From Harriotta raleighana (Eukaryota): a stretch of 64,000 nucleotides of DNA. The notes under the pieces were generated by a model. It ran no database searches and was not told the DNA's origin. It saw only the letters and a program-made list of their open reading frames with translations. A program made the position numbers and the translations under genes. Below are positions 7,746 to 49,317 of the stretch, piece by piece (positions within the stretch are counted from its first letter, which is position 1; each line of letters begins with the position of its first letter). The stretch is taken from assembly GCA_050575255.1 (NCBI GenBank), contig JBNZDD010013666.1, positions 4,252,293-4,316,292 of the forward strand. Direction: 5' to 3'.

Positions 7746-7870
7746 CACGGATAGGGAAAAACAAGAGGAAGAAGGCTTCAGAAGATGGACAGGTATGTCC
7801 GCTGTGCAATGACGCACTCTCTGGAACAGTGGAAGAAATGAGTAGGCATGTGGAGGCCTGTCTGGATAAG
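7746..7870 (+). CDS. RNF220: RNF220 coding exon (long form; short form ends at 7792)
   Basis: ttccag|CA CGG ATA GGG... translates (A)RIGKNKRKKASEDGQ-VCPLCNDALSGTVEEMSRHVEACLDK, matching recalled human RNF220 RIGKMKRRKQDEGQ. Donors are CAG|GTATGT at 7793 and AAG|GTAGTC at 7871, both phase 0. Confidence 0.9.
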
Positions 7871-9844
7871 GTAGTCAATGGGCATGTTGGTGTTCCAATA
7901 AGTCCCTCTTTTTATTGTTCTTTACCGCTAAGCTGATTCGAAGGATCTAATGTAAAAAAATCTGTTTTATTTATTTGTGAGCTGTAGGGGAATCCGATGG
8001 GTTTATTCGTGAGAGAGGAAATGTGATAGCTTTAATTGAGGAGAGAGATGATTATAAGTCGGTGACACAAGTATTAAACACCTTTCAGTGAACCTTGATA
8101 GCACTGAAGCATTTGTAGAGACTGTCAGTTGGTGATGTTGTTCTTTTATATATCATACAAAAATGTATATTCTCATGGTTACCATCAACTTCCGATTTCA
8201 TTGTTTAGGTTTTCGCACAAACTCCTGCAAAAGAGACTTTTTCATTTCAAAGGTTTTGTAAAGAAAAAACTCACCTTGTTAAAGATTTGTAGTTTCAAAT
8301 GCGCACTGGAGAATATTAAACCGCTATCTTGCGAATATACGGATATAAAATGGAAAATATTTGAGTCACATTATAGTTAAAACACAGTAACAAATCAGCA
8401 CATCGAAAATTCCATCGAAAGCATACTGTATCAAGATTCAAAAACCTTTAGAGTTGGACTTAAATCACCTGGAAGTGAATAGACGGCTTGTTCTGTACGG
8501 GGAAGATTACAAGGTAACAGCGGGAGAGCAAAATCAGAGGAATAACAGGCTAAGCCGAATATGAAAGAGCCTTTTTTTTGCTATTGCACAATGTATCATT
8601 TTAAATTATATTGACTTATGAATGTAATATTCCCTCGTAATTTTCTACCAGAAAAGAATATGGTATCAGTGTAGTACAGTGATTTAGTAAGCTAAACCTC
8701 AACATCTATCTTTATTTTCACCTCCGTCATGTTGGGTCTCAATACCTGAGGGTTGCTGTTCTTTATGAAATACAACATATAAGTTTGAAGGAGGGCATCT
8801 GTGCTATTTGGTCATAAAATCTATAAGTAATGAAAAGGATATGTGTACACTTAGCTGTGTCTGTTACTCTTTTTGTCTTTTTATGCTTTAGTCCTGTTGG
8901 TTAAAGGCAACCTGATAGCACTCGTTTTGTCTAGAACGCCATGATTGAAAAATTTCCTATAACCCACTGGCATGATGTCAGAGAAGTTTTACACAAAATG
9001 TTTGCTTCCAGATTGCCTTTAATAAGCAGTTCAGAAGCATGAAATGAAACCAGAGGTGACAGGAGATGAAGGTAAGTGTACAGATATGCCTCTTTATTGC
9101 ACGGGGCAATTAAACAGGATGTACTTTCAAATTTAACAAATTCTTAGCAGTGAGTTTGGGGCCAACGATAAACATTCTTGCAGTTTAATTGACCATAAAG
9201 TCCTTTGGGCTGTGTTCTAGCATTTATGATTACCTTAGACACCACTTTATTGTATTAGCGTTCTTTAACTTCCTGCCTGCCTTGCTCTGCCTGCCATCTT
9301 GTCATTCCAGAATACTTGCAGACTGAGGCTTTTTGCAATAGGAACATGCCAAACACATTTGATAATAAAATAGTATTTTTTAAAGACAAAACTGTTGTTA
9401 AAGGGGATGTAACTTTTTAAAGATCCTGGTGAGAATCCGGCACGCAGTCTGTAAATCCATCAACAGTTCACGTGGGGGGAATGATTGAGTCGGCCTCGAA
9501 ATCGGGTTTTGTGCATTTGTGGTTATCTTTTTAAGCTCTCGTTCAACAACACATGAGCATGGCTGGGACCACAAGCTCCAGTGGGACCTCATGTTGTGGC
9601 CTCCGTCACAACCAAATGGCTCAATTATTCCCCTAAACGTTAAGAGATGCAGCAAATGCAACACTATTGGAATACAACCCATTCCTGACCATTGTGCATT
9701 ACCCGCATTCAAAACAGTTGTCCATCTTAGGCTGAGTGTTCGTATCGTAAGGGATATTGACAGTGCGATGATTTAGGTGGCAGTGACAAGTTAAGACTAG
9801 GATTGAGTTATCAAGAGTTTACTGATCTCGCTTAGAATGAAACG

Positions 9845-10149
9845 TGGAGCTGCTGTAGCTCAGTGGTTAGAGCACTCGCCTTGCAAGCGTAAGACCTGTG
9901 TTTCGAATCCAGGCAGGTCATGGCGAAACCTTGGGCAAGTTTCCTTACTCCACACACTCACACGCCCAATAATAATCCCTCGAAAAAAAACACAATAATA
10001 AAATTGGTCATTTCAATCCACGGCTGTGTGTAATTGGCTGCTGCATTTCGCCCACAATTACACAGTCAATTCATTTTACAATATATTCTTTGAGACGTCT
10101 AGAAGATGTGAAAAAGCGCTATATCAAAGTGCAAGGATTATTATTATTA
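9845..10149 (+). mobile_element. Full-length tRNA-derived SINE
   Basis: Pol III A box TAGCTCAGTGG and B box TTCGAATCC, central domain, tail ...AAAAGCGCTATATCAAAGTGCAAGGA(TTA)n. Confidence 0.93.
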
Positions 10150-10319
10150 GAACGTTTGGTCAATCGCACTGGACTAGTAAAACTTGAGTATTAAAAGATG
10201 AAGTAAGTTTCAATGCGGTTTGTTACAATGGGTTCAATTACAATGTCAAAATACACTACAACTAGTCTTTCCTCCTGTGTGTTTTACCCATCGATAATCA
10301 CTTCAAAAAGATCTAAAAT

Positions 10320-10503
10320 AATAATAATTTGGTCACTTAATCCACGACTGTTTGCGGAGACCCAGCTGTGTGCAATTGGCTGCTACATTTTGCCCACAAA
10401 ATATACAGACAATAAATACCGTTTACAATTCGCTTCTGTGAAGCGCTTTGAGACCTCTCGCAGACGTGATAAGGCACTATATCAAATGTAAGAATTATTA
10501 TTA
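10320..10503 (+). mobile_element. SINE, 5'-truncated
   Basis: Central domain and tail. Confidence 0.85.
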
Positions 10504-10939
10504 ACTAAGCCTACAATGTACCATTATCCATCATTTCACTCAACACAAATCGATTTAGACTTTCAAACTGTCCTTTTCTATCAGAAATCCTATGTATTTA
10601 TTCATTCACCTGACCTTGCAATACAGGGTACAACTGGACTGGGTGCTGGCCTTGAAATGGAATTGGAAGGAAATATTTCTCCTGATAAATGAGTTCCGAA
10701 AGTATTATAATTTTTTGTTGTGAGCTCTGAAGAAAAGGGTACTTTTCAAAGTATGGAAAGTATATAAGCGCTCTCTAAACTGAAAGTTTAAGAGTTTCAA
10801 ACCTTCAATTTCATTGGCTTTAACCATGGGCGTATTCCTGGAATGCTTTTGAATAGCGAGCGAAGACCTTATCAAGAGAAATGGGCAAGGGGAAACGTTA
10901 CCACAACTTTTCTGTTGCAAAATTGCCACAGTTTTTTTT

Positions 10940-11130
10940 CTGCCTCGCCCCCTCCCTGGCCTCCTTCATGTCTCACCCCAAGATTCTCCTCTTTGATGGA
11001 CCCATCGGCAACTCCTAATTCCCCCTCCCCTTCCCTCCCCCCCGTCCCCAGCTCGGGTCTGAAACAGTAACTGTCCAGCGCCTTGGGATATCCCCATGAC
11101 GTGAAAGGCGCTATACAAGTGTCATTTTGT
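10940..11130 (+). mobile_element. L2-clade LINE 3' fragment
   Basis: Homologous to 17340-17535; tail cagcgccttgg...gtgaaaggcgctatacaagtgtc. Confidence 0.75.
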
Positions 11131-11200
11131 GGATGTTGAATAAAAAATATTTCACGCAACAAAACTGGTAAGTTAATTTGCAATCTGTTTCAACCCACAG

Positions 11201-11339
11201 CGAGATGGATCCTACACAAATGATGACGAGTCAGTGGATATGGAGAACGAGAGTGCAAGTGGGAACAGATTTGAGGAGTACGAATGGTGTGGGCAGAAGA
11301 GAATACGAGCCACCACCTTATTAGAAGGCGGATTTCGAG
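11201..11339 (+). CDS. RNF220: RNF220 coding exon
   Basis: cacag|CGA GAT...; RDGSYTNDDESVDMENESASGNRFEEYEWCGQKRIRATTLLEGGFR(G); donor G|GTACGC; 139 nt, phase 0 to phase 1. Confidence 0.97.
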
Positions 11340-12017
11340 GTACGCGACACTTCGCAATAAATTGACCCAGTTTGACCAGTTTTTAAAAAAAAATCTACGC
11401 CTGTATTTTCTTTTTGTAACACCTATTTACAACTGAAACCTTCAAAATTCAATCGGGTTTTCATTTGCAAGAGCAAACATTTCAAGTGTGTATCTAAATT
11501 TGCCCCTAAAAGGGGGAACCTGTCAGATCAGACCATATGCTCATCCCTAAATATTTGACCTTTACTTGACCAGTCCTGGGGAATGTAATTTTCGCAGGGA
11601 TCTGTTCCCGGCTCACTGAGGGCAGAGGAGCTGAGAAATGAGAGCTTGTCAAACAAAATTTCCTGTTATCTCCCTTGTTTTACCTAAATGAGGTAGGGCA
11701 GGGAGCAGCGTGTCTCATTTCAGAAGTTATAAAATATTGAAAGAGTCGGGTCTGTTGGGACCTGCTGGGGGGATTGCAGGTACAAGGTTCTGCGATCAAT
11801 TTGTACCGTTTTCCTAATGAAAGATTCAGAGTTTATGTCAGCTGTGCTTTCACACAGAGGCCTATTTATTTTGTCAGCTAAGGAGCTGGTTTGTAATTTT
11901 CAAAGGGATTCCAAAACCAGCTTGAAAGGGAAAGAATAATGCGCTTGGTGAAACTTGGGAATTTCAAAAATATATGATCATATATATTTCGATTACATAT
12001 ACAGTATTTATATTATG

Positions 12018-12350
12018 TAGCTCCTATAGCTCAGTGGTTAGAGCACTCGCCTTACATGAGACCTGTATTCGAATCCAGGCAGATCAGGGTGAAACCTTAC
12101 TTAGAATTTGGGCAAGTTTCCTCCACTCCCCCCCACACACACACACATCCCTCAAAAAAAAGAATAAAATTGGTCATTTCAATTCACGACTGGGGGATTT
12201 CAATCCACTGCTGTGCGCATTTGGCTGCCGTGTTTTGCCTACAAACACAGTCAGTTCACTTTACAGTATATCCTGTGAAGCGCTTTGAGACGTCTAGAAG
12301 ATGTGAAAAGCGCTATATCAAATGCAAGGATCATTAGTATTATAATTATT
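12018..12350 (+). mobile_element. Full-length SINE
   Basis: A/B boxes, body and tail. Confidence 0.9.
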
Positions 12351-13907
12351 ATATATCTATATCTCTATTTATCTACCTATGCTTTGCAGAGCTGTTGCGT
12401 GGGGTCCATCCAACAAAAACAAGTAGCAGACAATGCCATTTTAGCCTTGTAGAAAAAAATTGTGTTCGCTGTCATCCACTCACCACATCAGCCAAAAAAT
12501 GTAATTAAACTTTAGTGTACAGTGGAAATTGAGTGTATATTCTCAACCAAAACTAGGTACGTAAAAAATCTCAGTGCATTGAAGCCATAGGTGATTCCTA
12601 GCCACATCACCTGCGTTCTGAATTCTGTACCAGCTACTCGTTGGCAGTGTTACTATAATAATCAATCGATTTGTTATAGCCTCGGGATGCCTCAAAGTGC
12701 TTCATAGGATTTTACTCTGAAGTGTAGTGATTGTGTATTGGTAGGCAAACATCTAAAGCTGACTACTGGGGTGATGTGTGTATCTTTTCCTTTCAATCAG
12801 TCTCCGCTCATTCATACTTTAATCTTCCTGCTGAGAAGTGTATTCTGTTCAGAACTCTCTCTCTCTCCGGTTGAAGTTATGAAGTTTTGTTCCATGTGAA
12901 GCAAAGTCATTGTTCGAACCATCATCCCACAATGATGTGTGTCATTTAGAGTGCAGGTCCTAAACAAACATAACATCTGTCTTTATCTAGCAGTTGTGCG
13001 GATGAAGATACGTGTATACCTTCATAACATTTCCAATTATACTAGACATTAAACTACACTCTCCCTTTGAAGGTATGAGTGGAGGACAAATATCAATACC
13101 TTGCAAAGGCAAAATGCTGCTTAAAGAGATCAGTCAAATCCCAAATCTTTTCCTTATCCTCGTTTCCAATATCTTTTAAAGCTGCTTTTTTTATTTAACA
13201 CAGTGTGCTCTTCAAACAAAAGGAAAAGAAAAAAAATCCATTCATTCACCCCAAAATCACATTGGTTCATCTGTAGCTAGGGCTATCATCTTTAAATGAT
13301 TCATTGCGGTTTAAAGAAAGTGGCTGAGAACAGTAACTAACAGGCTGCTTTACAGATAGCCGGGCTATTGACAACATGTTGTGGATGAAACTATAGTAAC
13401 TGTGGAAATGAGCAAGGAGATAAGAAAGTAACGATGGCATCAGAAAAACGTTTGAAGCTGTGCTTTCATACCAGCTTTGTAATGTGACTTCAAAGCTCGG
13501 AGGGAGGGGGAGGGAGGGTGTTCTGCATGAGCAAGTCCCCACTCACTGCAAACTACCGACTGAGGAAATCTTTGGTTGTTATTTCGGCCTGAGCAGATGG
13601 GACTAAGTAGATTAGGTAGCGATAGGTCAGAGGCGGCCAGTTGTTCCCTTCTGTTCAGTTCCATTTAGGGATTTTGGGTCGATTGGCATCATGTGTCATT
13701 CCTCTAGTGATATCGCTCGGGTATTGATCCAGTCTAGACAAGAGCTGGAGGCATCGCACTGAGCGCGTGCTGCACCATGCATAATGTGATTGAAAGGCAG
13801 TTAGAATGCCACTGACCTTTTCAGGGAGGATTAGATTGCCTGCCAAGTCTGTTTAAACCAAGTGATAACGCGAGGTAAGGAAAACTGTCCGGACAACTTC
13901 AGAGTGG

Positions 13908-13938
13908 GAGAGAGAGAGAGAGAAAGAGAGAGAGAGAT
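13908..13938 (+). repeat. (GA)n microsatellite
   Basis: Seen directly. Confidence 0.9.
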
Positions 13939-14139
13939 ATACAGAGACGGGTTAGGGAAGAATGTTGTGCAGAGCTCTGCTGTGCTGTGCTTGCTGAAAT
14001 AGTCACTGTAAATAAAATATACGATTGAAGATGAGAGAAATTTGAGAGGAAACAATTGAGATCTTGTTTTTCGGAAAACTGGAAAGACTTTCACAATTTG
14101 CTTAAATTTGACCAGTATTGTATTTTTTAATATTCACAA

Positions 14140-14268
14140 TATTGCCCAAATTTCACCCACAAAATATATAGCCAGTTTAGTTTAGAATGTGTTCCGTGAA
14201 GCACTTTTTTGAGATATCTTGAAGATGTGATAAGGCAGCTATATCAAATGGAAGGATTATTATTGTTA
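14140..14268 (+). mobile_element. SINE 3' fragment
   Basis: Tail region. Confidence 0.75.
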
Positions 14269-15003
14269 TCATAAGATTGAAAACCAACTCTGGGTTAGCA
14301 AAATAATTTGATCAATTTCCTAACAAATTCAGGTGAAATTAACGTTTTTTTCATTAAAAAAATTCAGTGAAAGCAGCTGTGTTGCTTTGCTTCCCTTTCT
14401 GACATCCTTATATAGTTTATTAACAAAGGCCATAAAGTAAACCGATTACAGTATTAGTAAAAACGGTTTCCTTCCTGACTTGACAGCATGAGGTTTTGTT
14501 TTTAAAAAAATACACAGATTTTACGAGTTCTGTGTGTGGTTCAGGGTTTCAGTTCCTGATGTTGCCCAATGCTCAATCTGCTAGTTCCTTATATATAGAA
14601 GTGGCTTTTTATCCTGGGTCATAAGTGTTTGGGGGGAGAGGGAAGAGGGAAAAACCAAAACAGCATTAAAAAACCTAGTTAATGCAAGGTGAAGCAACTC
14701 TGTGAAAAGTTTTAGTATACCTGTTTTTTTTCTTTTTATTCTATGCAGAATTTGCTGGTTTTCAAATGTGGTTTGAGTCAGACTAGTTACCTAGTCAGAA
14801 TTGAGTGCTTAACCAGTGATGCAACTGAGATTTAGGAAAATAATCGTACAATACTTCTAATAATAATACAAAAAAATCCTTGTCCTATGAAGATTAAAAA
14901 GTTCAAACAGTGAAAAAGAACAAAAAAAAACAGTGATTTGGTCCATGTCTCTTGTTACAGTGTCCACAGTTGAATTGGATAACAGCTTCTAGAAGCATAT
15001 GTT

Positions 15004-15240
15004 TAATAATAATGATAATCCATGCATTTGATAAGACGTGTAGCGTCTTCTCACATCTTCGAGATATCTCAAAGCTCTTCACAGAATTATACTGTAAAGC
15101 TAATTGACCGTATACTTGGCGGACGAAACGTGGCAGTCAATTATTTTCCTAAATCACAGCAGCGTTTCCACAAACAATGGTGGATTGAGTGACCAAATGA
15201 TTATTTTTAAAAAATATATATTTTTTGAAGGGATTATTAT
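15004..15240 (-). mobile_element. Diverged SINE, 5'-truncated
   Basis: Reverse-complement body and tail. Confidence 0.8.
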
Positions 15241-16022
15241 CCCCATCTTCTCTCAATATTGGAAGAATGCTCTGTGAGAGCAGCTAAACATAAACTGTAT
15301 TAGGGGATGTTTGGCAAAGCCATAATAGAGTAATTGATCCCTATATTTGTACTTCTGAGGTTCACTTTGAGTTGAGTTTTAGCTGCAGAATTAAGAGACT
15401 AAGAACTGAATTAGACATATATGCGATGTGCATGTTACATTGGCATATTCCATCCTTCCTGCCCTCACCCACCCCTTTCCAATGTTGCCTTGATGAGAGT
15501 ACTGGACTCAAACAGACAGACTTATATTACATTTCACAGATATCAAATTTGAACTGAAATGAAGTTGTAATGAGAGTTGAAAGGTTACATTGAATTGAAT
15601 CTCCAGTTTGTACTTTTGGACAGGTTTACATTCAAGTTACATTTAATCTACTTGTCCAAGTCATAATGGCCAAATGGTTATAAGTGACATGACTGTGATC
15701 TTCGTAGTACATTAAGGCTGTACAATTATTTAAGCCGTATGTATTCGGCGATGATAAAACAGCGTGGTGACCTGCGGAACGCTGAATAGTTTAAATTCTG
15801 AATTAGTTCAGGTGTTTCTGAGTTTGTGATTTTCTGAAGTCCAGGGTAATTTCAGAATTTTTGTTTGAGGCTTAATGCAAAATTTTTCTGGAGATGCAGT
15901 AAATTTGGACAGTGCTCGATGGAACAAAGTGCACGTGAAGTATGCGTGGATGTACATTATGAAATACTATAAATATTATATACAGTGCATGGAAATATAT
16001 AAACAGAACCAAAGTGCAGGGT

Positions 16023-16735
16023 AACAACAATGACAATTTGCATTTGTAAAGCGCCCTCCCTCCACGCCCGGCGGCGTCTCAGAGCGTTTCTTAACGGTGG
16101 AGCCCGAGGCCGAGCCAGGGGGAGGGGAGGGGAGAAGGTGATCGTAAGTGTGGTCGATCGGTCGATGAGAAAGATCTTCAGGCGCGACCTGATGATGGGA
16201 AAGGAGGGGGTGAGATGAAGGGGTTGAGGGAGGGAGTTCCAAATTTCAGGGCCTAGTGGCTGAAAGCTTGGCTGCCTATCGCGGAGCAGAGGATTAGGGG
16301 GACAAGAAGGAGGCCAGACCCAGTAGAGTGGAGGCAGCAGGTACTACTTTGAGGAGAGAGGAGGTTAGAAAGGTGAGTGGGGTGCAGAGGAGTGGAGGGA
16401 TTTAAATACAAGAGTGAGAGGATCTAGAAGTTGATCCGCTTTGTGAGAGGGAACCAGTGCAGTTTGTGGAGGACTGGGGTAATCGGGATATGAAATTTGG
16501 TGCGGGTGAGAATGTGGGCGGCGAGTTTTAGATGAGCTGAATTTTGTGGATGGTGGAGGATGGGAGACCGGCGAGGAGAGCGTTAGATTAGTCCAGCCAA
16601 GAGGTGACAAAGGCACAGACCAGGCTTTGGGCAGCTTTTAAGGTGAGGAATTGCCGGAGACGGGCGATGCGGGGGAGATGGACGAGAGCGGGGCTGGTGA
16701 GGGAACAGGATGTGAGGGGAGGAAGGATCAGGCAA
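16023..16735 (-). mobile_element. L2-clade LINE, 5'-truncated and frameshifted
   Basis: Minus-strand translations include LTLVFKSLHSSAP and GPEIWNSLPQPL, typical of the L2 ORF2 C-terminus; (TTG)n-like tail at 16023. Confidence 0.85.
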
Positions 16736-17299
16736 TGCGTTTTGAAAATTCTTAAATTCTGCATTCATTTGAAGCTGTTACCATGGGTTAAAAACATCCC
16801 AATTGAGATTGTGCAGAATTTTGTGGGGAAAATTCCGTCATTCAATCTTCCATTGGAAAGCGATCGTCTCGAAGCTAAGACTGTGAGTATTTGCAGCCTC
16901 ATGAGCCGCTCTGCGAGCTCGGTGCTTGAGAGAATAATGAATGCCTAAAAATCATTCCAAGGAATCCGTTTGTTTTCTGCAATGATCCATGCTGATCACA
17001 TGATAAGGCTTTATTACCTTTTGGTGTCACTTTTGTTTTGCCAACACGGCAATTGATGTGAGATGATATCTGCGCGGCAGAGTTAAGGACTGTGATTTAA
17101 TCCCTACATGTTTCGAGTGAGCTGATTACTAGGACGTAATTCAGTCTGCAGTTGTACTTTGTTTAAAATAGATTATTAATATTATCGACCGCGCTTTCCA
17201 TTTTAAGGAGCGTAAGCCTCCGGTTTTGAAATTGAGTCTCTTAATTTTTTTTTGCCTCCACCGTGGTATCGTTCTCCACGGTTCGATCACCACAGTTCA

Positions 17300-17535
17300 T
17301 TGTCTCTGGAACTCCATCCCGCAATCCCTCCGCCTCTCTCACCCTCTCCCTGACCTCCTTCAAGTCCCTCCTCAAAACCCTCCTCTTCGACAGTCCCATC
17401 GGTCACCCCCCAAATCTCCCTTCCCTTCACTCTCCCCGTCCCCTGACCTCAGCTTGGGTCTGAAACACTGACTGTCCAGCGCCTTGGCACATCCTCCTGA
17501 CGTGAAAGGCGCTACGCAAGTGTCATGTTGTTGTC
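17300..17535 (+). mobile_element. L2-clade LINE 3' fragment, followed directly by a SINE tail (17535-17628)
   Basis: LWNSIPQSLRL...SFKSLLKTLLFD, the L2 ORF2 end motif. Confidence 0.85.
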
Positions 17536-19238
17536 AATTTGCTTTAAAGTATATTCTGTGAAGCGCTTTCGAGACGTTGATAAAATGTGAAAAGCGCTAT
17601 ATCAAATGCAAGGATTATTATTATTATTTACAAGTAAACCAGCCCCACAGTCTGTCCACATGTTCTTCCATCAAACTTTCTCCCTTTTTGCGGTCGGTCA
17701 CCTTGACTTATCCTTCGAGCCTCTTTTGTGGACTACCTTGAGAGTGATTGGCATGTTGTAGGTAGTTCTGAACCAAAACGCATCTGCGTGCGCCTGCCTA
17801 GACATGCACACACACGCACGCACACACCATACACCACANTTCTGAACCAAAACGCATCTGCGTGCGCCTGCCTAGACATGNACACACACGCACGCACACA
17901 CCATACACCACACACACACACACACACCAGTGTGCACCTATTGAGCAGCATCTTACGGGGGCTAAATGTATTTGACACACAGCAACTTCTCGCCTTCCAC
18001 ACCGGATAATTGCATTGTCAACTATTCAGCAAAGTGGCAGGTGACATGTGAGGCAATTGACTAGCCCGGTTGTTCTGTGCAGGACTGTCAGCTGTCCAAT
18101 CAATAGAGTTTACAGAAGACACCCTGATTGCATCTGTAACTAATTTAACTTTGAAACCCCCCCCCAGCTCTCCCCCGTTGCACAAAGTTGCAATTCTATT
18201 CAGGATGTACGCTGAGTGGCAGGTAGAAAAATCAATGACAGCTTTCTGCGGTCGTGCAGTCGTGGGCTTTTGCTGTGCATGGTTAACTAGCCGCCTTGAC
18301 TTCAAATCAATGAACTGATCAATTGATTAAATTAACAGTGATTTTCCTTTGGTTTAGCAGCCAGGGGCTCATTGTAAAGTGACATTATTGGTTGTGTTGT
18401 GTTTTGGGGTAACTCACATTTATAAAATTTAAGGCTTATTAACAGCTCAGCACTGGGAAATTCCACTTTTCCCTCTCACATGTAATGTTAATTATTTGGG
18501 CAGAGGCCACAGCCTACTGGGAGTTGGGATATATATCTGTGAAAGGACTGGATTGGGTTACAGGCTTTCGTTAGGCCTCAGCGTTCTTTCTCACCAGTTC
18601 AGACTCTGGTTAAATAGACCTGATAGCTAGAGCATGATTGATGGGGAAGTTTGTCTCCAGTAGTGTCAGAGACTTATAGAGGTGTCAGTCAAGATTGGGG
18701 CCTGAATTACTTGTCACATTCTGTGAAAGAATGTCGAAGGGACAAGGAACTGCCGCATTACTTTATTTTTCTCCGCTAAATGACGCGTGTCTTAGTTGTT
18801 TGCTGTTTTTAAGTTGCTGAAGGTTAAAATCAACAGGTTCAAACAAGCTGTGCTTTTTTTCTAAAAGAAAATTGTATCTGAAGACATTTTAATTGAATTA
18901 GATGCCTGAAGAATATGTGGGGAGAGCGGGGGAAATATGCTCATGTTGCCAAGTTTGAAGCAAAGGCTCCCTCCTAGATAAATAAGCAAACAGTGAGTGG
19001 GGGGAAAAAAAATCTTCATTCCAATCAAGGTAAAAATTTAACTGTATGTTTGGTGTTCTGATCAATTGATTGAATCATTTCTGAATTGGTTCCTGTTCAA
19101 TGAAACCCATCAAAATTCTAGGAAATTTGAAGGCAAATAAAAGCCACTGGTGAATTCTCCAAACCGTTCACCACACTCTCCCATAAACATCTTGCCAGTC
19201 ATCTTCCGATGTTTATGTGCATGTTGGCTATATTGGTA

Positions 19239-19400
19239 CAGTAAAACCCTATTTATCCGGCACCCACGGGACCTGGCCAGTGGAGGTTAAACGTTTTTTC
19301 CGGTTGAACAGATTTTTAAAAAGTATATATTTTTTAAATTAAAAATTATTTTAACACACACCACATTAATAATAGACCAAATAATAACCTGTTTAGACCT
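19239..19400 (+). mobile_element. Left end of a Tc1/mariner-superfamily (Tigger/pogo-like) MITE
   Basis: TA|cagtaaaaccctatttatccggcacccacggg, homologous to 26631 onward; no right TIR seen. Confidence 0.8.
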
Positions 19401-19902
19401 AATGGCCAACACACACACAGACACACATAGATACACACACAGACCCTCAAAGATATTCAGTCTGAATCCATCAGAAAATTCTGTCCACAATCCTCACCCG
19501 TCCCCCACCCTTTCATCTCTCCCCCCTCTTCTCTCTCTCTGCATCAACCTGCCTGTCATTACTCTCTCTCTCTCTCTTGCTCCATTATGCTTTCTCCCAT
19601 CTCAGCCTCAGAGAGAGTTTTATTGTCTTACTGCAATGTGCTAAACAGACTTATAAATATCAAATTTATGTTTGCACTGTAAACCAGATTTAAGGTACAT
19701 TGAATAATCTACATTAAGGTCCAACTTTGTTTTACGCTATACAGACACACGCACACTCATAAACACACACCACATGTAACTTAGATTAGAAACTCTTTTA
19801 CAACATGGTTATGATTTCCGTTATGATGTAGAGTGTTCATCACCATCCACATACTGTGTCCTTATTCCTTCATGGCATTGTATGTTGTATTTTTACACAC
19901 AG

Positions 19903-19999
19903 GATCCGGTTTCGTTACCTGTAGCAGTAAAGAGAATCATGACAGTGACGCAGATCTGGACGTGGATGGAGATGATACACTTGAATATGGGAAGCCACA
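19903..19999 (+). CDS. RNF220: RNF220 coding exon upstream of the U12-type intron
   Basis: cacag|GA TCC GGT...; (G)SGFVTCSSKENHDSDADLDVDGDDTLEYGKP(Q); ends CCA CA|GCATCCTT; 97 nt. Confidence 0.96.
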
Positions 20000-20137
20000 G
20001 CATCCTTATTTGACGGCTGTTTGTTTATTCCTGTTTTGGGGGGCTTTTACATTTGTGGTTTTTTAGGCTTGAGCTAAAAAAAAGGTTATTCCTTTACTCT
20101 CTACTTTTTCATCCTATAAATAGGATGTCCATATTTC

Positions 20138-20277
20138 GGAGCTCCTGTAGCTCAGTGGTTAGAGCACTCGCCTTACAAGCGCGAGACCTGTGTTTGAATC
20201 CGGGCAGATCAGGGTGAAACCTTGGGCAACTTTCCTTATTCCACACACACGCCTAATAATAATCCCTCCAAAAAAAC
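20138..20277 (+). mobile_element. SINE 5' half inside the U12 intron
   Basis: tRNA head with A/B boxes. Confidence 0.88.
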
Positions 20278-20342
20278 TGCTTTATAGCGTGTTAAGTACT
20301 TTACTCTGATTCACCTGAGCATGGTAAGGAGAGAGCTCCTTC

Positions 20343-20520
20343 AATAATAATAATCCTTGCATTTGATATAGACCTTTTTACGTCTCCTAGATATCTCAAA
20401 GCGCTTTACAGAATATACTGTAAAGTGAATTGACTGTATATTTTGGGTGAAACGCAGCAGCCATTTGTGCACAGAAGCGTCCCCCACAAACAGTTGTGGA
20501 TTGCAAAGACCAATTTTTGG
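20343..20520 (-). mobile_element. SINE 3' half inside the U12 intron
   Basis: Reverse-complement tail and central domain. Confidence 0.88.
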
Positions 20521-20687
20521 TCATTTTGTTTGAACAATATGTATTTTGTTTGAACAATATGAAAAATAAATGGGGGTGGGGGAGATTCCTTTATGATTGT
20601 GTTAGTGTAGTCAGGTAGAATCTACGATAAAGGTTGGAGTACATTTTCTTTTGTAGTTTCCCTATTTCCTTAACTCACCATAACCAG

Positions 20688-20774
20688 ATACACAGAGGCA
20701 GACATTATACCTTGTACTGGTGAGGAACCAGGTGAAGCCAAAGAAAGGGAGGCGCTACGTGGTGCAGTTCTAAA
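20688..20774 (+). CDS. RNF220: RNF220 coding exon
   Basis: accag|A TAC ACA GAG...; YTEADIIPCTGEEPGEAKEREALRGAVL(N); donor AA|GTAAGT; 87 nt. Confidence 0.97.
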
Positions 20775-20970
20775 GTAAGTAGCAGTGTATCAACGCAATA
20801 GAGGATTTCAGATTGTTTCTCTACTACAAAAACCGTCTCATTTCATCCTTTAAAAGCGCTTTGGGACGTCCTCCTGTCGTGAAAGGCACTATATAAGTGT
20901 AATTTTGTTGTTTAAAAAGATTTTTTTTTTTTTGGTGGGATGAGGGTTTAAAAACGCTACCCGTTTAACT

Positions 20971-21128
20971 ATCAAATTTTCCCATCTTATTTTTCCATGC
21001 TTTTGAGAATTTTTTCTTCTTGATTTAAAAAAAAGAAGGAATTTTCCTCATCTGACTTCCATTTCTTTTTTTTTGGGTGCGGGGGGTGGGGAAATGCCTT
21101 CGACAAGTAAAGGAGAGAGCAGTAAACT
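20971..21128 (+). pseudogene. Degenerate duplicate of the intron end plus 5' half of exon 22225-22306 (pseudo-exon)
   Basis: Aligns by eye to 22103-22261, including gaaatgcc(t/c)tcgacaagtaa(a/c)ggagagagcagtaaact. The acceptor AG is replaced by a G-run. Confidence 0.85.
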
Positions 21129-21562
21129 CGTCTCTGTCGGGACACTAGTTGAAATGAATTTGGGATCAACCCAGTTCTTTAATAGGTTTAAGTCTGAGTG
21201 TAAAGTGTTCAGTAATTTACCACTAAATTGCCACTAATTTGCCAGCCTTGCGCCGAGAGGCAGTGGTCTAGACGGCTCGTGCAAGAAATTGGCAATGTCA
21301 TATTGTTTGAGGTTTGAACGTTTTGAGTTCAAGGAGAAGGAAAAGGCTGGGGTGAAGTCCTTTCATTGTAAATTAATGATACAAATGAATGATTTAAATT
21401 TTTTTTAGAATGTTACACGTTTTAATTTTATTTAGCTAGTTTGTGGACTGTTTAATCACTTCCTCTGAACATTGAATTTTCCACAGCCCGACCATAGGCC
21501 CCAGAAAACGGTGGTAGGTTTAACAGTGATGACATTAACTAAGATGTATGGTCTCTTTGCAG

Positions 21563-21618
21563 TGGTGGAACTCCAAGCAATCGAATAACGCCAGAGTTTT
21601 CCAAATGGGCCAACGATG
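21563..21618 (+). CDS. RNF220: RNF220 coding exon
   Basis: ttgcag|T GGT GGA...; GGTPSNRITPEFSKWAND(E); donor G|GTAGGT; 56 nt. Confidence 0.96.
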
Positions 21619-22224
21619 GTAGGTAGTCAAAAAAGCTGACAAAGATCCTCATAATGTGAAAGGCGCCATACAAGTGGCATTTTATTTGTTTGTTTGTTAA
21701 AGCCAGTTTATAGAAGGAAGGAATTGCCTTTGTTCTTCTGATTTGCCCATTTTAATACAATGTTGGTGATTAACACTGAGGTGATCTAACTGACTGGTAA
21801 AGGCCAAATGGACGGAGATGGCTGTTGTGAATTGTATTGATATGAATGTTGCCTCTGTTTCCTTCTCTTTCCTTATCATCTCGTAGACTGGTCTCTGAAT
21901 AAAGGCCTAAATATTGTGGGAGAGGGAATGGAATTAAAATCCTTTCTCACCCCTTACACCTAAGTTAACGTCAAAGCCATACATACCAGTGGAATAAAAT
22001 TCTCTTCTGATCTCTGCTCGCTTTGAGTTCAAAGTGAAATACATTTCAAGTTGTTTGGGGGATTTGGGATCATACTAATTCCGAACACCCCATCATCTTT
22101 GCATCAAATTTGCCCATCTGATTTCTCCACGCTTTTGAGAATTTTTTCCTCTTGATTTAAAAAAAAATGAAGGAATTTTGTTGATGGATCCATCTCCTCA
22201 TCTGATTTCCATTTTTTTTCTTAG

Positions 22225-22306
22225 AAATGCCCTCGACAAGTAACGGAGAGAGCAGTAAACTAGAGGTGCAGACACAGAAGACGTGTAAAAACAGCGAGAT
22301 TGAAAA
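22225..22306 (+). CDS. RNF220: RNF220 coding exon
   Basis: ttcttag|AA ATG CCC...; MPSTSNGESSKLEVQTQKTCKNSEIE(K); donor AA|GTAAGT; 82 nt. Confidence 0.96.
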
Positions 22307-22414
22307 GTAAGTGTTGGAGTGTTGACAGAACAGATCAGTCTATTTCTGCTCTGACCAACTTACAGAACAGTTTGTGCTTCTGTTCTCTACAGCAACAGGT
22401 TGCCTGGTACCGGT

Positions 22415-22635
22415 AATAATAATCAGTCCACAAAAAAACCACAATAGTAAAAATTGGTCATTTCAATCAACGACTGTTTGTGGGACGCTGCTGTGCGCAA
22501 CTGGCTGCCGAGTTTCACCCACAAATATACAGTTAATTCACTTTATGGTATATTCTGTGAAGCGCTTTGAGATGTTGATAAGATGCGAAAAGCCGCTATA
22601 CCAAATAGAAGGATGATTATTATTATTATTATTAT
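22415..22635 (+). mobile_element. SINE, 5'-truncated
   Basis: Body and tail. Confidence 0.88.
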
Positions 22636-37175: not shown

Positions 37176-38269
37176 TTTATTATTCATTATTATATGAATT
37201 CAGATCTCATGATACACATTATTAAAAAGCTATTGCTCAAATTCATTTCTATCAAGCATTATGTTGAATTAATATATTATTATATACACACACTTATATA
37301 TATAATGCACTTTAATGCGCTGGTTGGTAATGTGAGACGCAGTACTTTGCATGCTCAGGCTGATTCTGGCTCTGCTCACCCGGTGATGGAACTGTTAAGG
37401 GTTTGGGTGCACACTGCCTTTGCCACAGTAAATCACACCACTTCACAATTACCATCTCCTCCCTGTAGCCACCTATGCCCTCAAAGCCCAGGGTCTTCTG
37501 ACTGTGTGTAAACAAACTGTCAGTTGGTATTGCATCAATCAGACTGCGCAGATCGCTGCCCGTTCCTGCCTCTCGTTTTGCTGTGTTCGAATATGCCATT
37601 TCCGAGAAGATGTTATTGTCTGAACCAATGGAAGAGAGAGAGAGAGAGTCCGTGTCTGTCACACGTTGCCTGTTCAAGCAGAGACTAACAATCAGGGCAT
37701 GATATTATCAATCTTGTTGTTATGACATATGCAGAGGTTGCAAACCACCCTCAAGTTTGGCCAAATCAAACGTCTGTTTGTCTTCCTCCCCCCCCCACCC
37801 CGCTCTCTCCCTTTTGTCAGAAACATCTTCAGATGGTTGCAGTTATGTTTCCTTTAAGGGGATTGAAGAGCGCAATCCCGTGACCTGACTAGGTGGAGAA
37901 CATTTCCTCTCATAGATATCACAAAACCTGTTTAATTGAATGGTTCTCTATCCCATTATGAAACCCATCTTAAGTTGAAATGGCCTTAAACCCCTCAATA
38001 CTGTTGGTACATTTTAATACCTGATTAATTAATAAAAATAATGATAATTAAAATATTCTTTCTGTTCTATTCTGATATCTATCTTTCAGGTCCTGGATTC
38101 TGACTAAGGACAGTCTGGTAACTATGGGTACTCCTTGCCTCCCATCCACTGTTGTGGACAGTATAGGGTCAGTGTAGGGTCTGGAGTAAGAATGTTTGAC
38201 AGTCATTAACTTCTACTTGGGAAAATGTGATCAAATCCTAACTGGGAACTTTGGATCCTCTGTTTGTGG

Positions 38270-38710
38270 TGCTGGGTACTGCTATTGGAGGGGAGAAGTG
38301 AAGAGAGTTTCTCCTGGTGTCCTGGCCATCAGCCCCTCAAGTAAAATTGGTTCATTTACATCATGGTTGTTGGTGGGACATTGCTGTGTGTGCAAATTGG
38401 CTGCCATGTTTGCCTACAAAATAATAATAATATTTGCATTTGATGTAGCGCTTTTCACATCTTCTAGACATCTGTGATATTGTCAGACTTCTAGATGTCT
38501 CAAAGCGTATCACAGAACATGCTGTAAAGTGAATTTTAAAGTAATTGTAAAGCAGCCAATTGGGTACAACATGTCCCACAAACAGTTGTGGATTGAAATG
38601 ACCAATTTATTTAGACAGTCACCACATTTTGCAGTGCAGTGTGAAGCACTTTAAGATGTCCTCCTGACGTAAAAGGCACTATAATCAAATGCAAGGATTC
38701 TTCTTATTAT
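38270..38710 (+). mobile_element. Old Deu-domain-like SINE interrupted by a younger minus-strand SINE (38421-38612)
   Basis: ctcctggtgtcctggcc...gtgggacattgctgtgtgtgcaaattggctgcc; the tail resumes at about 38615. Confidence 0.65.
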
Positions 38711-38794
38711 AAACTGTTGTAGTCTCTCCTCTACATTGACACTGGTATCAGAAGCATCTTCAGGTGGATGCAGTTGTGTCTTTGATACTGTTTT

Positions 38795-39145
38795 TTCAAA
38801 TCCGTCCACTCCTCTCCGATCGCCTCTCTCCTCAAACCAGATCCGTTTCCTTCACTCCTCCGGGTGTGGCTTCCTCCTTGACCCCCAAATCCTCCGCTCC
38901 ACCCTCGGCGGCTGTGCCTTTAGCCACTACTCCCCGAGGCTCTGGAACTCCCTTCCTCACTCCTTTCGCCTCGCCCCCTCTCTTCCCAGTTTCAGGTCTC
39001 AGCTAAAGACCTTTCTCTTTGACCGCGCCTTCAGTCACCTTTCTACCCCTGCCCCTGGCTCAGTCCCGGGATCCGTTGTTGTGAAGTGCTCTGAGATGTC
39101 GTCCGGCGCAGAGGGCGCTATATAAATCAAAGTTGTTGTTGTTGT
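38795..39145 (+). mobile_element. L2-clade LINE 3' fragment
   Basis: GCAFSHYSPRLWNSLPHSFRLAPSLPSFRSQLKTFLFDRAF; tail ...gggcgctatataaatcaaa(gtt)n. Confidence 0.9.
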
Positions 39146-39789
39146 TTCTTGCTAATCTCAGACAGCGAAATATGTGGGAAAGATGGGTCGGGGCAGATGG
39201 ATCCAGGCTTTTCCTGTATGCTTTTGTGTAAAACTCATACTTTTTTTTCTCTGCATTCATCTTAGTGACTGGCATCGTAGTGTAACATAATTATTCTTAA
39301 TTTGACTCTCCGTTTGACACCCTCTCTCTGCTGCCAACTGTTCAGTGACCTGACAAGTGTGAAGATCTAAATACAAGGCTGTCACTTAGCATTGTAGCAC
39401 TTACATTTGGGCACTTTCCAGAGGTGCTTTAAAACTTTCGCCTGCTTTCCAGTGACGTGCTTGTTAATCACTCTGCAATTTGTCAAAGGCAAATCCTGCT
39501 GAGCTAAGATTGTTGACTGCATCATGGTGCTCGTGTCTCTCTCTCTCTCTCCTGCGATGATTGTTGGGTGTCATTCTGTGACAAGATTGAACTATTAATG
39601 GCTAGAAAAATGAAACAGAACAAACCGACAGAGTTCAAACACACATTCAGAAAGGAACCATTTCTTTAACTCTTAGGTAATTCATATAATTTCCAGAATT
39701 CCCAAAGTGCTGGATTATTTTTCTTAAACCAGGATGTTAAAATAATTTGTGATTTTAGCATAATAGAGTATTTTGATCCTCAAAATATT

Positions 39790-40003
39790 AATAATAAGAA
39801 GAATACATGCATTTGATATAGCGCTTTTCACATCTTATCAATGTCTCAAAGCATTTCACAGAATTTACTGTAAAGTGAATTGACTGTATATTTCTGGGCG
39901 AAATGCGGCAGTCAATTGCACACAGCAGCGTCCCCACAAACAGTCGTGGATTTATACGACCAATTTTATAATTGTGGGTTTTTTTGGGGACGGATTATTA
40001 TTA
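39790..40003 (-). mobile_element. SINE, 5'-truncated
   Basis: Reverse-complement body and tail. Confidence 0.88.
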
Positions 40004-40132
40004 CGTTACCATAAATATGGTAAACTCACAAATGATTAGACCTGTGCAATTTTTTTTAAAAAGGAAAGTGTAAATCTATTATGACTCTTGATTCCCCCTT
40101 TAACTATTTCCCTCTTCTGTTTTCCTTCCCAG

Positions 40133-40241
40133 GATATCGGAGGATGCCACCGTCACGACAATCGAAGCGTTGAAAGCCCGTATCCGTGAATTGGAACGAC
40201 AGCTGTCTCGCGGGGATCGGTATAAATGTCTTATTTGCATG
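40133..40241 (+). CDS. RNF220: RNF220 coding exon (coiled coil and start of the RING finger)
   Basis: ttcccag|G ATA TCG...; ISEDATVTTIEALKARIRELERQLSRGDRYKCLICM; donor ATG|GTATGT; 109 nt. Confidence 0.97.
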
Positions 40242-40508
40242 GTATGTGTGGCGAGTGCCCTCGCTTTGCTCCACTGTGGAATTGTTAAATATAAAAAAAA
40301 TCCTCACCTCGTCTCTGTCGCTGCTAAACAATCAGTGACTAGCTCAAAGATCTATTTCTTTTCACATCAATTTGGGTGAAAGTATGTTGTTAAGTGAAGG
40401 CAGTGGATGGAGGCCCTTCTTCTCTCCCATTGCTGTTGTGGTCGCAGTATTCTTGAGAGAGTACTTTTTAACACTTTAACAGTGAATACTGTGCAACTGT
40501 GGAGTTGT

Positions 40509-40830
40509 GGAGCTCCTTTAGCACTCGCCTTACAATCGTGAGACCCATATTCCAATCCAGGCAGGTCAGGGCGAAACCTTGGGCAAGTTTCCTTACTCCA
40601 CACACACACATGCACGCGCACATGCCTGATAATAATCCCTTCCAAAAAACAATAATAATAAAATTGGTCATTCCACTCCATGACTGTTTGTGGGGACGCT
40701 GCTGTGCACAATTGGTTGCTGCATTTTGCCCACAAATGTACAGTCAATTCACTTTACAATTCTGTGAAGCGCTTTGAGACATTGATAAAATGTGAAAAGC
40801 GCTGCATCAAATGCAAGGATTATTATTAGT
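40509..40830 (+). mobile_element. Near full-length SINE
   Basis: Head (A box deleted), body and tail. Confidence 0.9.
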
Positions 40831-41079
40831 AGTAGTATTATGAACACTGAGAAATGCTGTATTTCATATGTGTCTTTAACCTGATGAGACTTTAGTGCAA
40901 ATAAGTTGCATATATTGGAAAGCTGGCTTGAGCATTTTCTGTTTGCTGCATCTATTAGTCGGTCAGTCATTCTTGGGTATTTAGAAGCTGTGGTTTGTGA
41001 ATCTGCTTTGCAATATAATTTTGACTACTGCAATCTTAAATGAAGGAGAGAATCAAAACACAATGAGTTTATTCTATTG

Positions 41080-41428
41080 TGGAGGTCCTGTAGCTCAGTG
41101 GTTACAGCACTCGCCTTACAAGTGTGAGACCTGTGTTTGAATCCAGGCAGATCAGGGCGAAACCCTGGGCAAGTTTCCTTGCTCCACACACACACACATA
41201 CACACACATACACGCGCCTAATAATAATCCATTCCAAAAAAACCACAATCATAAAAATTGGTCATTTTAATCCACGACTGTTTGTGGGGACGCTGCTGTG
41301 CGCAATTGGCTGCCGCATTTCACCCACAAGTATACAGCCAATTCACTTTACAGTACATTCTGTGAAACGCTTTGACACGCTGATAAGATGTGAAAAGCGC
41401 TATATCAAATGCTAGGATTATTATTATT
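41080..41428 (+). mobile_element. Full-length SINE
   Basis: Head, (CA)n linker, body and tail. Confidence 0.92.
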
Positions 41429-41429
41429 A

Positions 41430-41812
41430 CCGTAAAACCTTGTTTATCCATGATCTGATCAACCGGATTGCTCGACCCCCTCCCGGGGCAATTGCCCATT
41501 TCAGGAATCGCGAGTTTGCTCACTTTGCGCTTCGTGCAACGCGTGCTCATGCGCACTTAGTAAACTTACGAACTTGGGTTTTTTACCGATCGGTCAAAAA
41601 TGCTGTTTTACCGATTTTTTTTACCGACTGTGCTGGAATGCTTTATTGGTAAGTATATTCTGTTACTATGTAGTGTATTATTAACATGGTATGTCTTAAA
41701 ATAAGTAACATTTTTGTGTTGGGTTTTCAGTAACTTGTCCCCCGTTTATCCGGCACCGTCAATTATTTAGTCGACCCCCCCCCAAGCGGGCAGGATAAAC
41801 AAGGTTTTACTG
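41430..41812. mobile_element. Second Tigger/pogo-like MITE subfamily, inserted at a TA in a SINE tail
   Basis: TA|ccgtaaaaccttgtttatcc ... ggataaacaaggttttactg|TA; the internal sequence differs from 26631-27667. Confidence 0.85.
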
Positions 41813-43176
41813 TATTGTTATTGTTCCTCATTTGTACAATAGGAATTGTCATTATCTCACAGGAGATGTTGCTCAGACTGTTACGTCAGATTATTTACTC
41901 CTTTCTCTTATGCCCGAGATGTTATTGCAGAGGGTAGCCTGGATTTGTTATATCTCTCTCTCTCTCTTATACATAGCAGACTGTCTCTGTTTCACTCTTA
42001 CCAGAAGGAAATAAAACAACAACAGTAAAACAATCACATTTCTGTACCGCCTTTCCCGTCGGGAGACGTCCCAAGGCGTTGAGTTTGGATTTGAGTCGCA
42101 GCTTACTGAAGCTGACTTTAGTCAGGTTGGCTTAGGTTGATAGGTAACATTGTCTTGGTAGCTAACCTGTTACAACCAGCTCAGACACAGTTGATTTCAG
42201 ATGATTTTCCCTGTGGGATGATGACACCTTAAAATTTAAATCAAACTCCCCAGGGTCCTTCCCAGTGTCGTATTGTCATAACCCCTGTCTTTGTTGTGTT
42301 CCGTTATTACACGACTGTTTGACAATGTGAAGGCTGGTTTTTCGAGTCAGCAACCAAGAGTACAACAGCAGGAATGCACAAAAGCAATCGGAATGCGCTT
42401 TTCCCCTCAAAACACCAATAAAAAAAATCTGTTATAAAACAGGTTTTGACTTATTCAGTCACTGTAAAACAGTAGCTAGTGGCAAGAGACGTGACCTATT
42501 GCTTCTAATCTGTGCTGACTATTCCTTACACCGCGTGGGCTCTCTAGATGAGCATTAACAGCATTCCATATATTCCTCCTAAGCATTTTCCTGCTGGAGA
42601 TGTTAAGACGATCTGTGTATAATTCCCGATCTCACTGCTTGGTGGGAATAATTCGAGGAACCTCCCACCTGGAGATAAAACCATGTGTTTTATCTCCATT
42701 AAGAAAATATTTTGCGCGTTTTCAAAAAGGATTGAGATGTAAGCTTGAAAATGTAGACCATCTAACTAACATCTGCAGCAGCAAATTGTTTGAGAGGTCA
42801 GATTAGAAGCAGTCCCTCTCTCAAATAAATAACAGTGGTTTTTTTTTATTGCCACTTGCTATATCATCCAGTGAAAGGAGTTATCGCTTAATGAATAGGC
42901 TCAGGGCACTAGCTTTTCATATCAATAGAACAAAAAGCATTTTATCGATCTCGACAGTTAGTGTCCTTTGTAGCTTGGAGTGGTGGGACACTGGTGTTTC
43001 TACATATGTTATATGCCAGGACACAACTTGCTTTCACTTAGCAAATGTTAAAGCCTTGACTGCTCAGGGTGAGAAATGCTTTAGTGCTGTGACAATGAGG
43101 TACTCAATACTCTTCCCCCCACTCTCTCCCCCAAATCTGCCACATTCTTTACCAGCGCGAATTCTCACTCCATCCA

Positions 43177-43547
43177 GGAGCTCCTGTAGATCAGTGGTTG
43201 GAGAACTCACTCGCCTTACAAGCGTGAGACCTGTGTTCGAATCCAGGCAGATCAGGGCGAAACCTTGAGCAAGTTTCCTTACTCGACACTCACACACACA
43301 CACACACATGCACACACACAGATACACACACAATAATAATCCCTCCAAAAAATTACAATAATAAAAATTGGTCATTTCAATCCATGACTGTTTGTGGGGA
43401 CGCTGCTGTGCGCAATTGGTTGCCGTGTTTCGCTCACAACTACAGTCAATTCACTTTACAGTAAATTCTGTGAAGCGCTTTGAGACGTCTAGAAGATGTG
43501 AAAAGCGCTATATTAAATGCAAGGATTAGTATTATTATTATTATTAT
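43177..43547 (+). mobile_element. Full-length SINE
   Basis: Head, (CA)n linker, body and tail. Confidence 0.92.
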
Positions 43548-43959
43548 AACGTGCACTGGATTGCCATTCTATATGAATGTTTTCCTCCTAGACATTTTTT
43601 CTTTAAACAAAGATGAGCTTCCCTGTTTGATGTTCTGGTTTCTCATTGTGATCTCTGGTTGTTGTGTGGGGTGGGGGGTGGGGTTCTCAAAGCTGCCTAT
43701 TCCGGGAGGCGACTTAAGACGTGGCTCAAAATAGGACCTTATGTAGGAAGATTGAAAGATAACCTGATTGCCCCTAGATCCAAAGAATCAACAGTTGCCC
43801 AGATGATTTTCCCTGTGGGATGACGACAGCAGTAACTGTATCTCTCGGATCATATTCAAATCAATGCTTAACATTCTGCTTTTAATTTTTATCTGAAATA
43901 ATTGTGGGACCGACCCAGTCTGGGCGTACTGTGCTGTATAACATAAAATGAATTGGTGT

Positions 43960-44055
43960 TATCATAGAATCATACAATTTTACAGCACAAAAGGAGGCCA
44001 TTCGGCCCATTGAGTCTGTGCCGGCTCTTTAAAAAGAGCAATTTAATCCCATTCT
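43960..44055 (-). mobile_element. CR1-clade LINE 3' end fragment
   Basis: atcatagaatcata...acagcacaaaaggaggccattcggccca resembles the reverse complement of the (ATTCTATG)n CR1 tail with its GGGCCGAATGGCC hairpin. Confidence 0.7.
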
Positions 44056-44556
44056 TCAGCTCTCTCCCCATAATCACACAAACCTGTCCTCCCCAAATAG
44101 ATGTCTACCTCTCTTTTATCTCATATTCATCTGTAAAGGTACAAGTCAATTCATTTTTTAGTGCCAACTTTATGCGAGTGTTCCAACGGAATTGGGTTGC
44201 ATAGGTTAAAAACAAGACCATGTCTTTAACAATCAATACCTGTATAATTGTACAAATCTGTTAATCATTTAACATTCGGACTTGCCACAAGTCTGTCTTT
44301 AGATTTCATGTGTGCAGCCTTTAACCCTTTTAAAGCGCCAGTCACTTCATTTGCTGAGAATTTTATAATGTTCTGTTCAGTTAGGTCAGGAGCTCCGTAA
44401 TGTGACGCGGTTACATTTAAATCTGTGTGTATGAATGGCCTTTTTCTAGATCACTTCATTGAAAATCATTTGAGTTCCCCAAAAGGTGACATTACACAAA
44501 ATTATCGAATGCTTGTGTTATTTTTCTTGCCTGAGATTTTGAGGTGACCCCGGACA

Positions 44557-44775
44557 GAATAATAATCCCTCCAACAACAAAAAAAATAATAAAACTGGTC
44601 ATTTCAATCCACGACTGTTTGTGGGGACGTTGCTGTGCGCAATTGACTGCTGTGTTTCGCCCACAAATGTACAGTCCATTCACTTTACGGTATATTTTGT
44701 GAAGCGCTTTGAGACACAGTCCAGAAGACGCGAAAAGTGCTATATCAAATGCAAGGATTATTATTATATTATTAT
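44557..44775 (+). mobile_element. SINE 3' two-thirds
   Basis: Body and tail without head. Confidence 0.88.
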
Positions 44776-44818
44776 TCTCTTCATTTACAGTACAATTATT
44801 TTGAAACTTATTGGAGGA

Positions 44819-45106: not shown

Positions 45107-45114
45107 CCGGTTCA

Positions 45115-49288: not shown

Positions 49289-49317
49289 GTAAGAATCTCC
49301 TTCCATTTCTTCATTTC

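Follow-up and report, generated by a model that had tools for sequence, protein, structure and literature searches.

U12-type introns with GC-AG termini and a GCATCCT donor have been a named subtype since 2006, when they were defined by a GCATCC motif together with the branch site (Sheth et al. 2006, PMC1557818, in its accessible part). The same source counts four such introns in human (of 671 U12 introns), four in mouse, and one in fly, with the LZTR1 intron conserved. As a share of all U12 introns, GC-AG amounts to 0.61% in human, 0% in zebrafish, and up to 4.3% in fugu in the available portion of Moyer et al. (PMC7367187). Depletion of CENATAC affects the GC site of LZTR1, which loses out to GT-AG in competition, according to the available sections of de Wolf et al. 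2021 (PMC8280824). A lineage-specific GT-to-GC case is also already published: in the accessible text of Lin et al. 2010 (PMC2831892), twelve flies have GC-AG termini at the Drosophila SF3A1 (CG16941) intron, where bee and beetle have GT-AG. For donor recognition, the available text of PMC11874965 assigns recognition of positions -1 to +4 of the minor donor to SNRNP48, SNRNP35, and U11 stem-loop III, with positions +5 to +10 pairing with the U11 5' end; SNRNP48 cross-links to the U at +2 (bioRxiv 2023.12.22.573053, available part).

Here we describe a 64,000-nucleotide stretch of DNA from Harriotta raleighana (contig JBNZDD010013666.1, positions 4,252,293 to 4,316,292), hereafter the window, in which a minor intron of RNF220 carries a C at +2. 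Judged by its splice signals, this intron is a new example of the rare, already described U12 GC-AG subtype. It resembles the human and mouse LZTR1 intron in its GCATCCT donor, its optimal, normally spaced branch site, its non-U2 exonic context, and its AG end. LZTR1 is a different gene, whose intron is GC in human as well as mouse and has been studied functionally, whereas the RNF220 GC intron is known from sequence alone. SF3A1 is similar in having a lineage-limited GC donor where relatives have a U12 GT-AG intron, although it is an insect gene followed through 12 Drosophila genomes, while the GC donor of RNF220 may belong to chimaeras only or to all cartilaginous fishes.

RNF220 gene structure in the window

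The 3' part of RNF220 lies intact on the plus strand at 7746..58396, with 10 exons, 314 codons, and one terminal stop, as mapped by tblastn with retrieved RNF220 proteins, including chondrichthyan ones, and a frame check. All ten exons join into one open frame once the intron at 20000-20687 is removed, and the remaining eight RNF220 introns within the window are GT-AG. The coding exon 5' of the minor intron (19903..19999, 97 nt, plus strand), identified by tblastn and by the Pfam RNF220 domain (PF15926), has a single match across the genome and ends in ...CCA CA, such that a Gln codon is split after two bases. The coding exon on the 3' side (20688..20774, 87 nt, plus strand) was placed by tblastn and the frame check, and the last four exons (40133-40241, 49214-49288, 56120-56221, and 58325-58396, plus strand) contain the C3HC4 RING and the stop (tblastn, Pfam). 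With its upstream exon encoding the RNF220 domain, a C3HC4 RING downstream, and an open frame, the gene is identified as RNF220. Compared over 155 residues, the encoded protein shares 94.8-98.7% identity with six cartilaginous-fish proteins, Callorhinchus being the best match (153/155), and 80-87% with seven bony-fish and amphibian proteins.

Exon 56120-56221 encodes 34 in-frame residues inside the RING, between the last C3HC4-scored exon and the final CxxC, and matches Callorhinchus isoform X2 (P0040) at 100%. Isoform X6 (P0011) is without both this exon and the one at 49214-49288, which means that annotated isoforms include RING-altering ones. ARAGORN calls two tRNA genes, at 34376-34449 and 56325-56396; both overlap further copies of the SINE head present in the minor intron and are likely SINE heads rather than tRNA genes.

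Boundaries and splice signals of the minor intron

The minor intron, of U12-type GC-AG and phase 2, spans 20000..20687 on the plus strand (688 nt), as defined by sequence, frame, and orthologous position. Its ends are ACA|GCATCCTT...TTCCTTAAC...CAG|AT, and the window reads GGG AAG CCA CA|GCATCCTTATTT at 19999/20000 and ATTTCCTTAACTCACCATAACCAG|A TAC ACA at 20687/20688. The minor-type donor GCATCCTT (20000..20007) has ATCCTT at +3 to +8 and C at +2 (20001), the latter setting it apart from the canonical U12 subtypes, GT-AG and AT-AC with T at +2. Near the 3' end lies the consensus U12 branch site TTCCTTAAC (20666..20674), of the form TTCCTTRAC, in which A20673 is the predicted branch point, 14 nt from the end of the intron; this branch site is the sole copy in the window on both strands. 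The acceptor CAG (20685..20687) follows without a polypyrimidine tract between branch site and AG. In addition to these U12 features, the intron has the combination of GC...AG ends, GCATCC at +1 to +6, and a branch site at optimal distance by which the GC-AG subtype was described in 2006. While GCATCCTT alone is expected 1.6 times per window and is therefore uninformative by itself, ATCCTT at +3 to +8 together with TTCCTTRAC within 12 allowed places has a chance of about 3e-8 under an order-2 Markov model with exon ends fixed. The branch 12-mer also occurs in the Pign row of the MIDB table, where its score is 95.7; that of human and mouse RNF220 scores 87.4.

Joining 19999 to 20688 yields ...LEYGKPQ|YTEADIIP..., and YTE follows the KPQ motif in 125 of 200 retrieved homologues, the other 75 comprising 74 intron read-throughs and one exon-skipping model. 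Cartilaginous-fish RefSeq models also read KPQ|YTEAD, which supports the junction at the protein level. The GTs closest to the exon end are at 19962 (38 nt upstream of the donor) and 20019 (19 nt downstream). The initial annotation, which had placed the KPQ|YTEAD junction at 19999/20688, seen no GT near the exon end, read ATCCTT and a U12 branch site alongside a C at +2, and put the intron upstream of the RING exons, thus agrees with the sequence, the homologues, and the Pfam assignments on each of these points.

When donors were scored against the 11-position U1 consensus, the GCATCCTT donor had 3/11 matches, compared to 6-9 at the other donors (one of which was mis-set by one base). It thus lacks the strong U1 match at the remaining donor positions that characterizes U2-type GC-AG introns. 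Across the exon and the intron, position 20324 is the only GT or GC with at least 7/11 matches. This U2-like donor, ATG|GTAAGG (7/11), and an acceptor with a pyrimidine tract and AG at 20656 are nested inside the minor intron, and splicing from 20324 to 20656 would keep the stop at 20064. GT-AG alternatives starting from 19962, 20019, and 20023 were considered and rejected, as the in-frame pairs listed, up to donor 20027, would lose or substitute conserved residues. Some mammalian models show a nested isoform that stays in frame at the RNF220 minor intron (P0054, P0060, P0063, P0076, and P0085).

If the intron is retained, the reading frame meets an in-frame TAG at 20064..20066 (plus strand), which precedes the RING. 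Because this stop is far upstream of the RING exons, retention is predicted to trigger nonsense-mediated decay (NMD) and to remove the RING from the product. The branch site TTCCTTAAC itself contains an in-frame TAA (20671-20673). The intron further contains a tRNA-like SINE head (20138..20277, plus strand), recognized from its many window copies and its very high read and contig depth, and a second high-copy repeat segment (20343..20530, no strand assigned), recognized from window copies and from read and contig depth.

Orthologous RNF220 introns in other vertebrates

Human and mouse RNF220 are minor-intron genes in MIDB, with the donor ACA|GTATCCTTG and the branch site TTGTCCTTGACC (PMC6717393, available part). 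The human intron responds to morpholinos against U12, U4atac, and U6atac, and the zebrafish rnf220a intron responds to loss of rnpc3 (both from the accessible text of PMC11347168). The intron position is classed as 'minor' in human, mouse, and zebrafish, so the window intron shares its position with established minor introns. The human (chr1:44644795-44644994), mouse, and zebrafish rnf220a introns have in common with it the gene, the U12 donor at +3 to +8, a U12 branch site, and the KPQ|YTEAD junction, and human and mouse also share the exon end ACA|. The donor context is identical to that of human and mouse except at +2 and +9, position +2 being T in human, mouse, and zebrafish and C in the window. 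The branch site is TTCCTTAAC in the window compared with GTCCTTGAC in human and mouse RNF220, and the window intron, with its SINE insertions, measures 688 nt versus 200 nt in human, 177 nt in mouse, and 109 nt in zebrafish. The in-frame nested isoform of some mammalian annotations (YPWG...HHAR) is blocked in the window by stops. Going by these comparisons, the RNF220 intron position is an old, known minor intron in which only the +2 base is unusual.

The claim of the initial annotation that the intron is U12-type is upheld by its orthology to a U12-responsive human intron, and the rarity that it ascribed to U12 GC-AG introns agrees with their share of 0-1% of U12 introns in most vertebrates tabulated in the available part of PMC7367187. 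The cross-vertebrate comparison that it pointed to suggests that GC is lineage-limited, with T at +2 in human, mouse, and the named bony vertebrates. Its description of the intron as weak would hold by analogy, in that the LZTR1 GC site loses to GT-AG in a reporter.

The base at +2 in related sequences

In proteins whose annotated ORF runs past the exon end, the first intron-encoded residue gives the base at +2, with TAT (Y) indicating T and CAT (H) indicating C. The 74 read-throughs comprise 55 YP, 13 YR, 4 YH, 1 YL, and 1 HP; +2 is T in 73 of them, including Latimeria, Acipenser, Naja, and six mammals. The retrieved proteins are cluster representatives and not species. Rarer GC read-throughs may lie beyond these 200. 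The 13 YR, 4 YH (one from Naja naja), and 1 YL proteins deviate at donor position +6. The sole HP protein, P0001 (KPQ-HPFC), has a different intron sequence yet C at +2; its exon equals that of the window but it continues with HPFC where the window has HPYL, and it therefore derives from a different organism. Among the matches listed (the best 120 of 1236 in one search), none of the read-through proteins was named as a shark or ray. A metagenome scan recovered one orthologous locus, L002, with a GT donor; this donor, GTATCGTTT (L002:3113-3125), deviates at +6 and is paired with the branch site TTCCTTAAC.

Run X6, which bears another organism label, covers the donor at a contig depth of 27 over approximately 19883-20164; it has substitutions at 19994 and 20011 and, among the differences listed, none at 20001. 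X6 has six C>T places, three among those listed and three covered by repeat-region entries. Beyond those listed, X5, which lacks donor cover, has four C>T places, and X17, whose listed differences come only from repeats, has six; these tallies account for the three unlisted places of X6, so none is needed at 20001. We regard this as strong but indirect support for a shared C. Raw reads with the own-species label (X17) have a depth of 1-2 at the donor, below the three-read listing threshold, X5 has a coverage hole at 19988-20019 that spans the donor, and X14 covers the donor, with its donor positions outside the differences listed. At 20688, the first exon base past the acceptor, the window has A while X5, X6, X14, and L002 have G, a synonymous difference in a Gln codon. 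The spacing between branch site and AG is one base shorter in X5, X6, and X14.

In a 263-species orthology table, the RNF220 cell of Callorhinchus milii (column 409 of 675) reads 'minor-like' and not 'minor', a class that fits a deviant donor, although it names no dinucleotide. On this sequence comparison, the C at +2 is very probably not a sequencing or assembly error, and relatives appear to share it. From the state in bony vertebrates and the rarity of GC, we infer a T-to-C change at +2 in this cartilaginous-fish lineage.

Minor spliceosome components in the genome

The genome contains genes for U11 and U6atac (the latter full-length), with nothing unusual apparent in their donor-binding ends. 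The one U11 copy found (L003; G000:C13650:2704778-2704911, minus strand) matches the Rfam consensus in its AAAGGG 5' segment and AUCAAGA loop; because AAAGGG is intact, the helix with donor positions +5 to +8 is intact as well, and no compensating change is visible in U11 or U6atac. In this U11 gene, the first model position is U, and the basal stem has U-A pairs where the Rfam consensus has c-g. A zf-U11-48K exon, from a candidate SNRNP48, was also found, and the 43 U12 snRNA candidates scored, out of about 64,000, gave no match. Separately, at locus L021, a ZDHHC exon end with the donor GTATCCTT occurs in three tandem copies within approximately 190 nt.

Discussion

The reading that we consider probable is that an ancient U12 intron of RNF220 underwent a T-to-C change at +2 that was likely inherited within the lineage, and that U12-dependent removal of 20000-20687 is predicted to continue, less efficiently, and to be tolerated. 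The proposed mechanism would build on a donor that keeps +3 to +8 and a full-consensus branch site 14 nt from the AG. From the published mechanism and pairing by eye, CCUU at donor positions +5 to +8 would pair with the unchanged AAGG at the U11 5' end, while at +2, which is read by SNRNP48, SNRNP35, and U11 stem-loop III, C would lose a contact and leave the helix in place. U11/U12 would then bind donor and branch site jointly, with the optimal branch site offsetting the weak donor. We infer such buffering from two sequences, the window intron and L002, both of which have TTCCTTAAC. U1 would probably be unable to take over, leaving the intron U12-dependent, and transcripts that stay unspliced are predicted to hit the stop at 20064 and be lost to NMD. 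The most likely origin of the C is a T-to-C change that, assumed to be near-neutral, would have become fixed as such and not as a built regulator. By analogy with LZTR1, the window intron probably works in the same way and, for its rare class, is ordinary in mechanism. C-to-U RNA editing at +2 was dropped as an explanation because nothing points to it and introns of the subtype are known to function without editing.

An assembly error, or an allele private to the sequenced animal, is a most improbable source of the C: own-species raw reads are only 1-2 deep at the donor, but X6 has no difference at 20001 among those listed, P0001 independently has C at +2, and the C. milii orthologue is 'minor-like'. 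That the major spliceosome removes the intron, treating it as U2-type GC-AG or using another nearby GT-AG junction, is very unlikely. U2 GC-AG introns are far commoner in human than U12 GC-AG introns (1602 versus 4 in the accessible part of PMC1557818), 'minor-like' introns often bind U2AF1, and the intron contains the U2-like donor 20324 and acceptor 20656. The same source, in that part, has U2 GC donors requiring an extra-strong consensus, however, while this donor has 3/11 U1 matches. Furthermore, G at -1 marks the minor-like introns that escape the minor spliceosome and its absence those that stay U12-dependent, and the window donor has no G at -1; the alternative GT-AG pairs listed alter conserved residues, and the nested pair keeps the stop at 20064. 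We likewise see little likelihood that the minor spliceosome of this lineage has changed, with +2 relaxed genome-wide and RNF220 one of many GC minor introns. That U11 differs at position 1 and in the stem from its Rfam consensus would favor such a change, but the AAAGGG segment and AUCAAGA loop match that consensus, and human minor-intron positions in C. milii are 'minor' in 329 cases versus 'minor-like' in 15. In addition, 80 loci from three minor-intron-rich families contain two U12-like donors at Pfam exon ends, both of them GT, albeit in a tiny sample.

A different view accepts a real U12 GC-AG intron and holds that its weak donor was selected as a rate-limiting switch, with retention leading to NMD and throttling the RING ligase when minor spliceosome activity falls. 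Consistent with a switch are the loss of GC to GT in the competition reporter, the CENATAC dependence of the LZTR1 GC intron, the stop that precedes the RING on retention, the deviation of the same donor at +6 elsewhere (18/74 read-throughs, YR, YH, and YL, and L002), and a C that seems common to at least three distinct sequences. Yet the consensus donor is kept in 55/74 read-throughs as well as in human and mouse, tolerance with a strong branch site accounts for the deviations equally well, and neutral processes may account for much of minor-intron evolution, as the title of PMC10639083, a pan-eukaryotic survey, argues; we therefore consider selection for a switch unlikely. A broader form, in which the RNF220 donor was weakened independently in several vertebrate lineages, with the branch site optimal, and selection keeps the intron as a slow brake on the RING ligase that acts through NMD, would comprise +2 C in cartilaginous fishes together with the G or A at +6 of amniote-type sequences, cobra among them, and appears quite doubtful.

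Conclusions

A literature search combining RNF220, Callorhinchus, or elephant shark with U12, whose scope left out most subscription papers, found no paper on the RNF220 GC allele, and the accessible parts of PMC10639083, including its searched supplement, and of PMC13602164 add nothing on RNF220. The online intron databases (MIDB, intronIC) likely hold the C. milii copy, and the supplementary list of Sheth et al. 2006 may include the RNF220 intron. No GC donor occurs in the 794-row human/mouse MIDB table; this and the demotion of the C. milii orthologue to 'minor-like' amount to a blind spot in practice.

The RNF220 GC intron leaves knowledge of the minor spliceosome unchanged, and adds a vertebrate lineage-limited switch from GT to GC to a subtype with a handful of known members. 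If the donor has been weakened recurrently under selection, the GC allele of cartilaginous fishes would amount to a long-running natural experiment on U11 snRNP recognition of +2. Together with its GT orthologues, the intron offers a natural GC/GT pair for how far a strong branch site may offset a lost contact to the U at +2.
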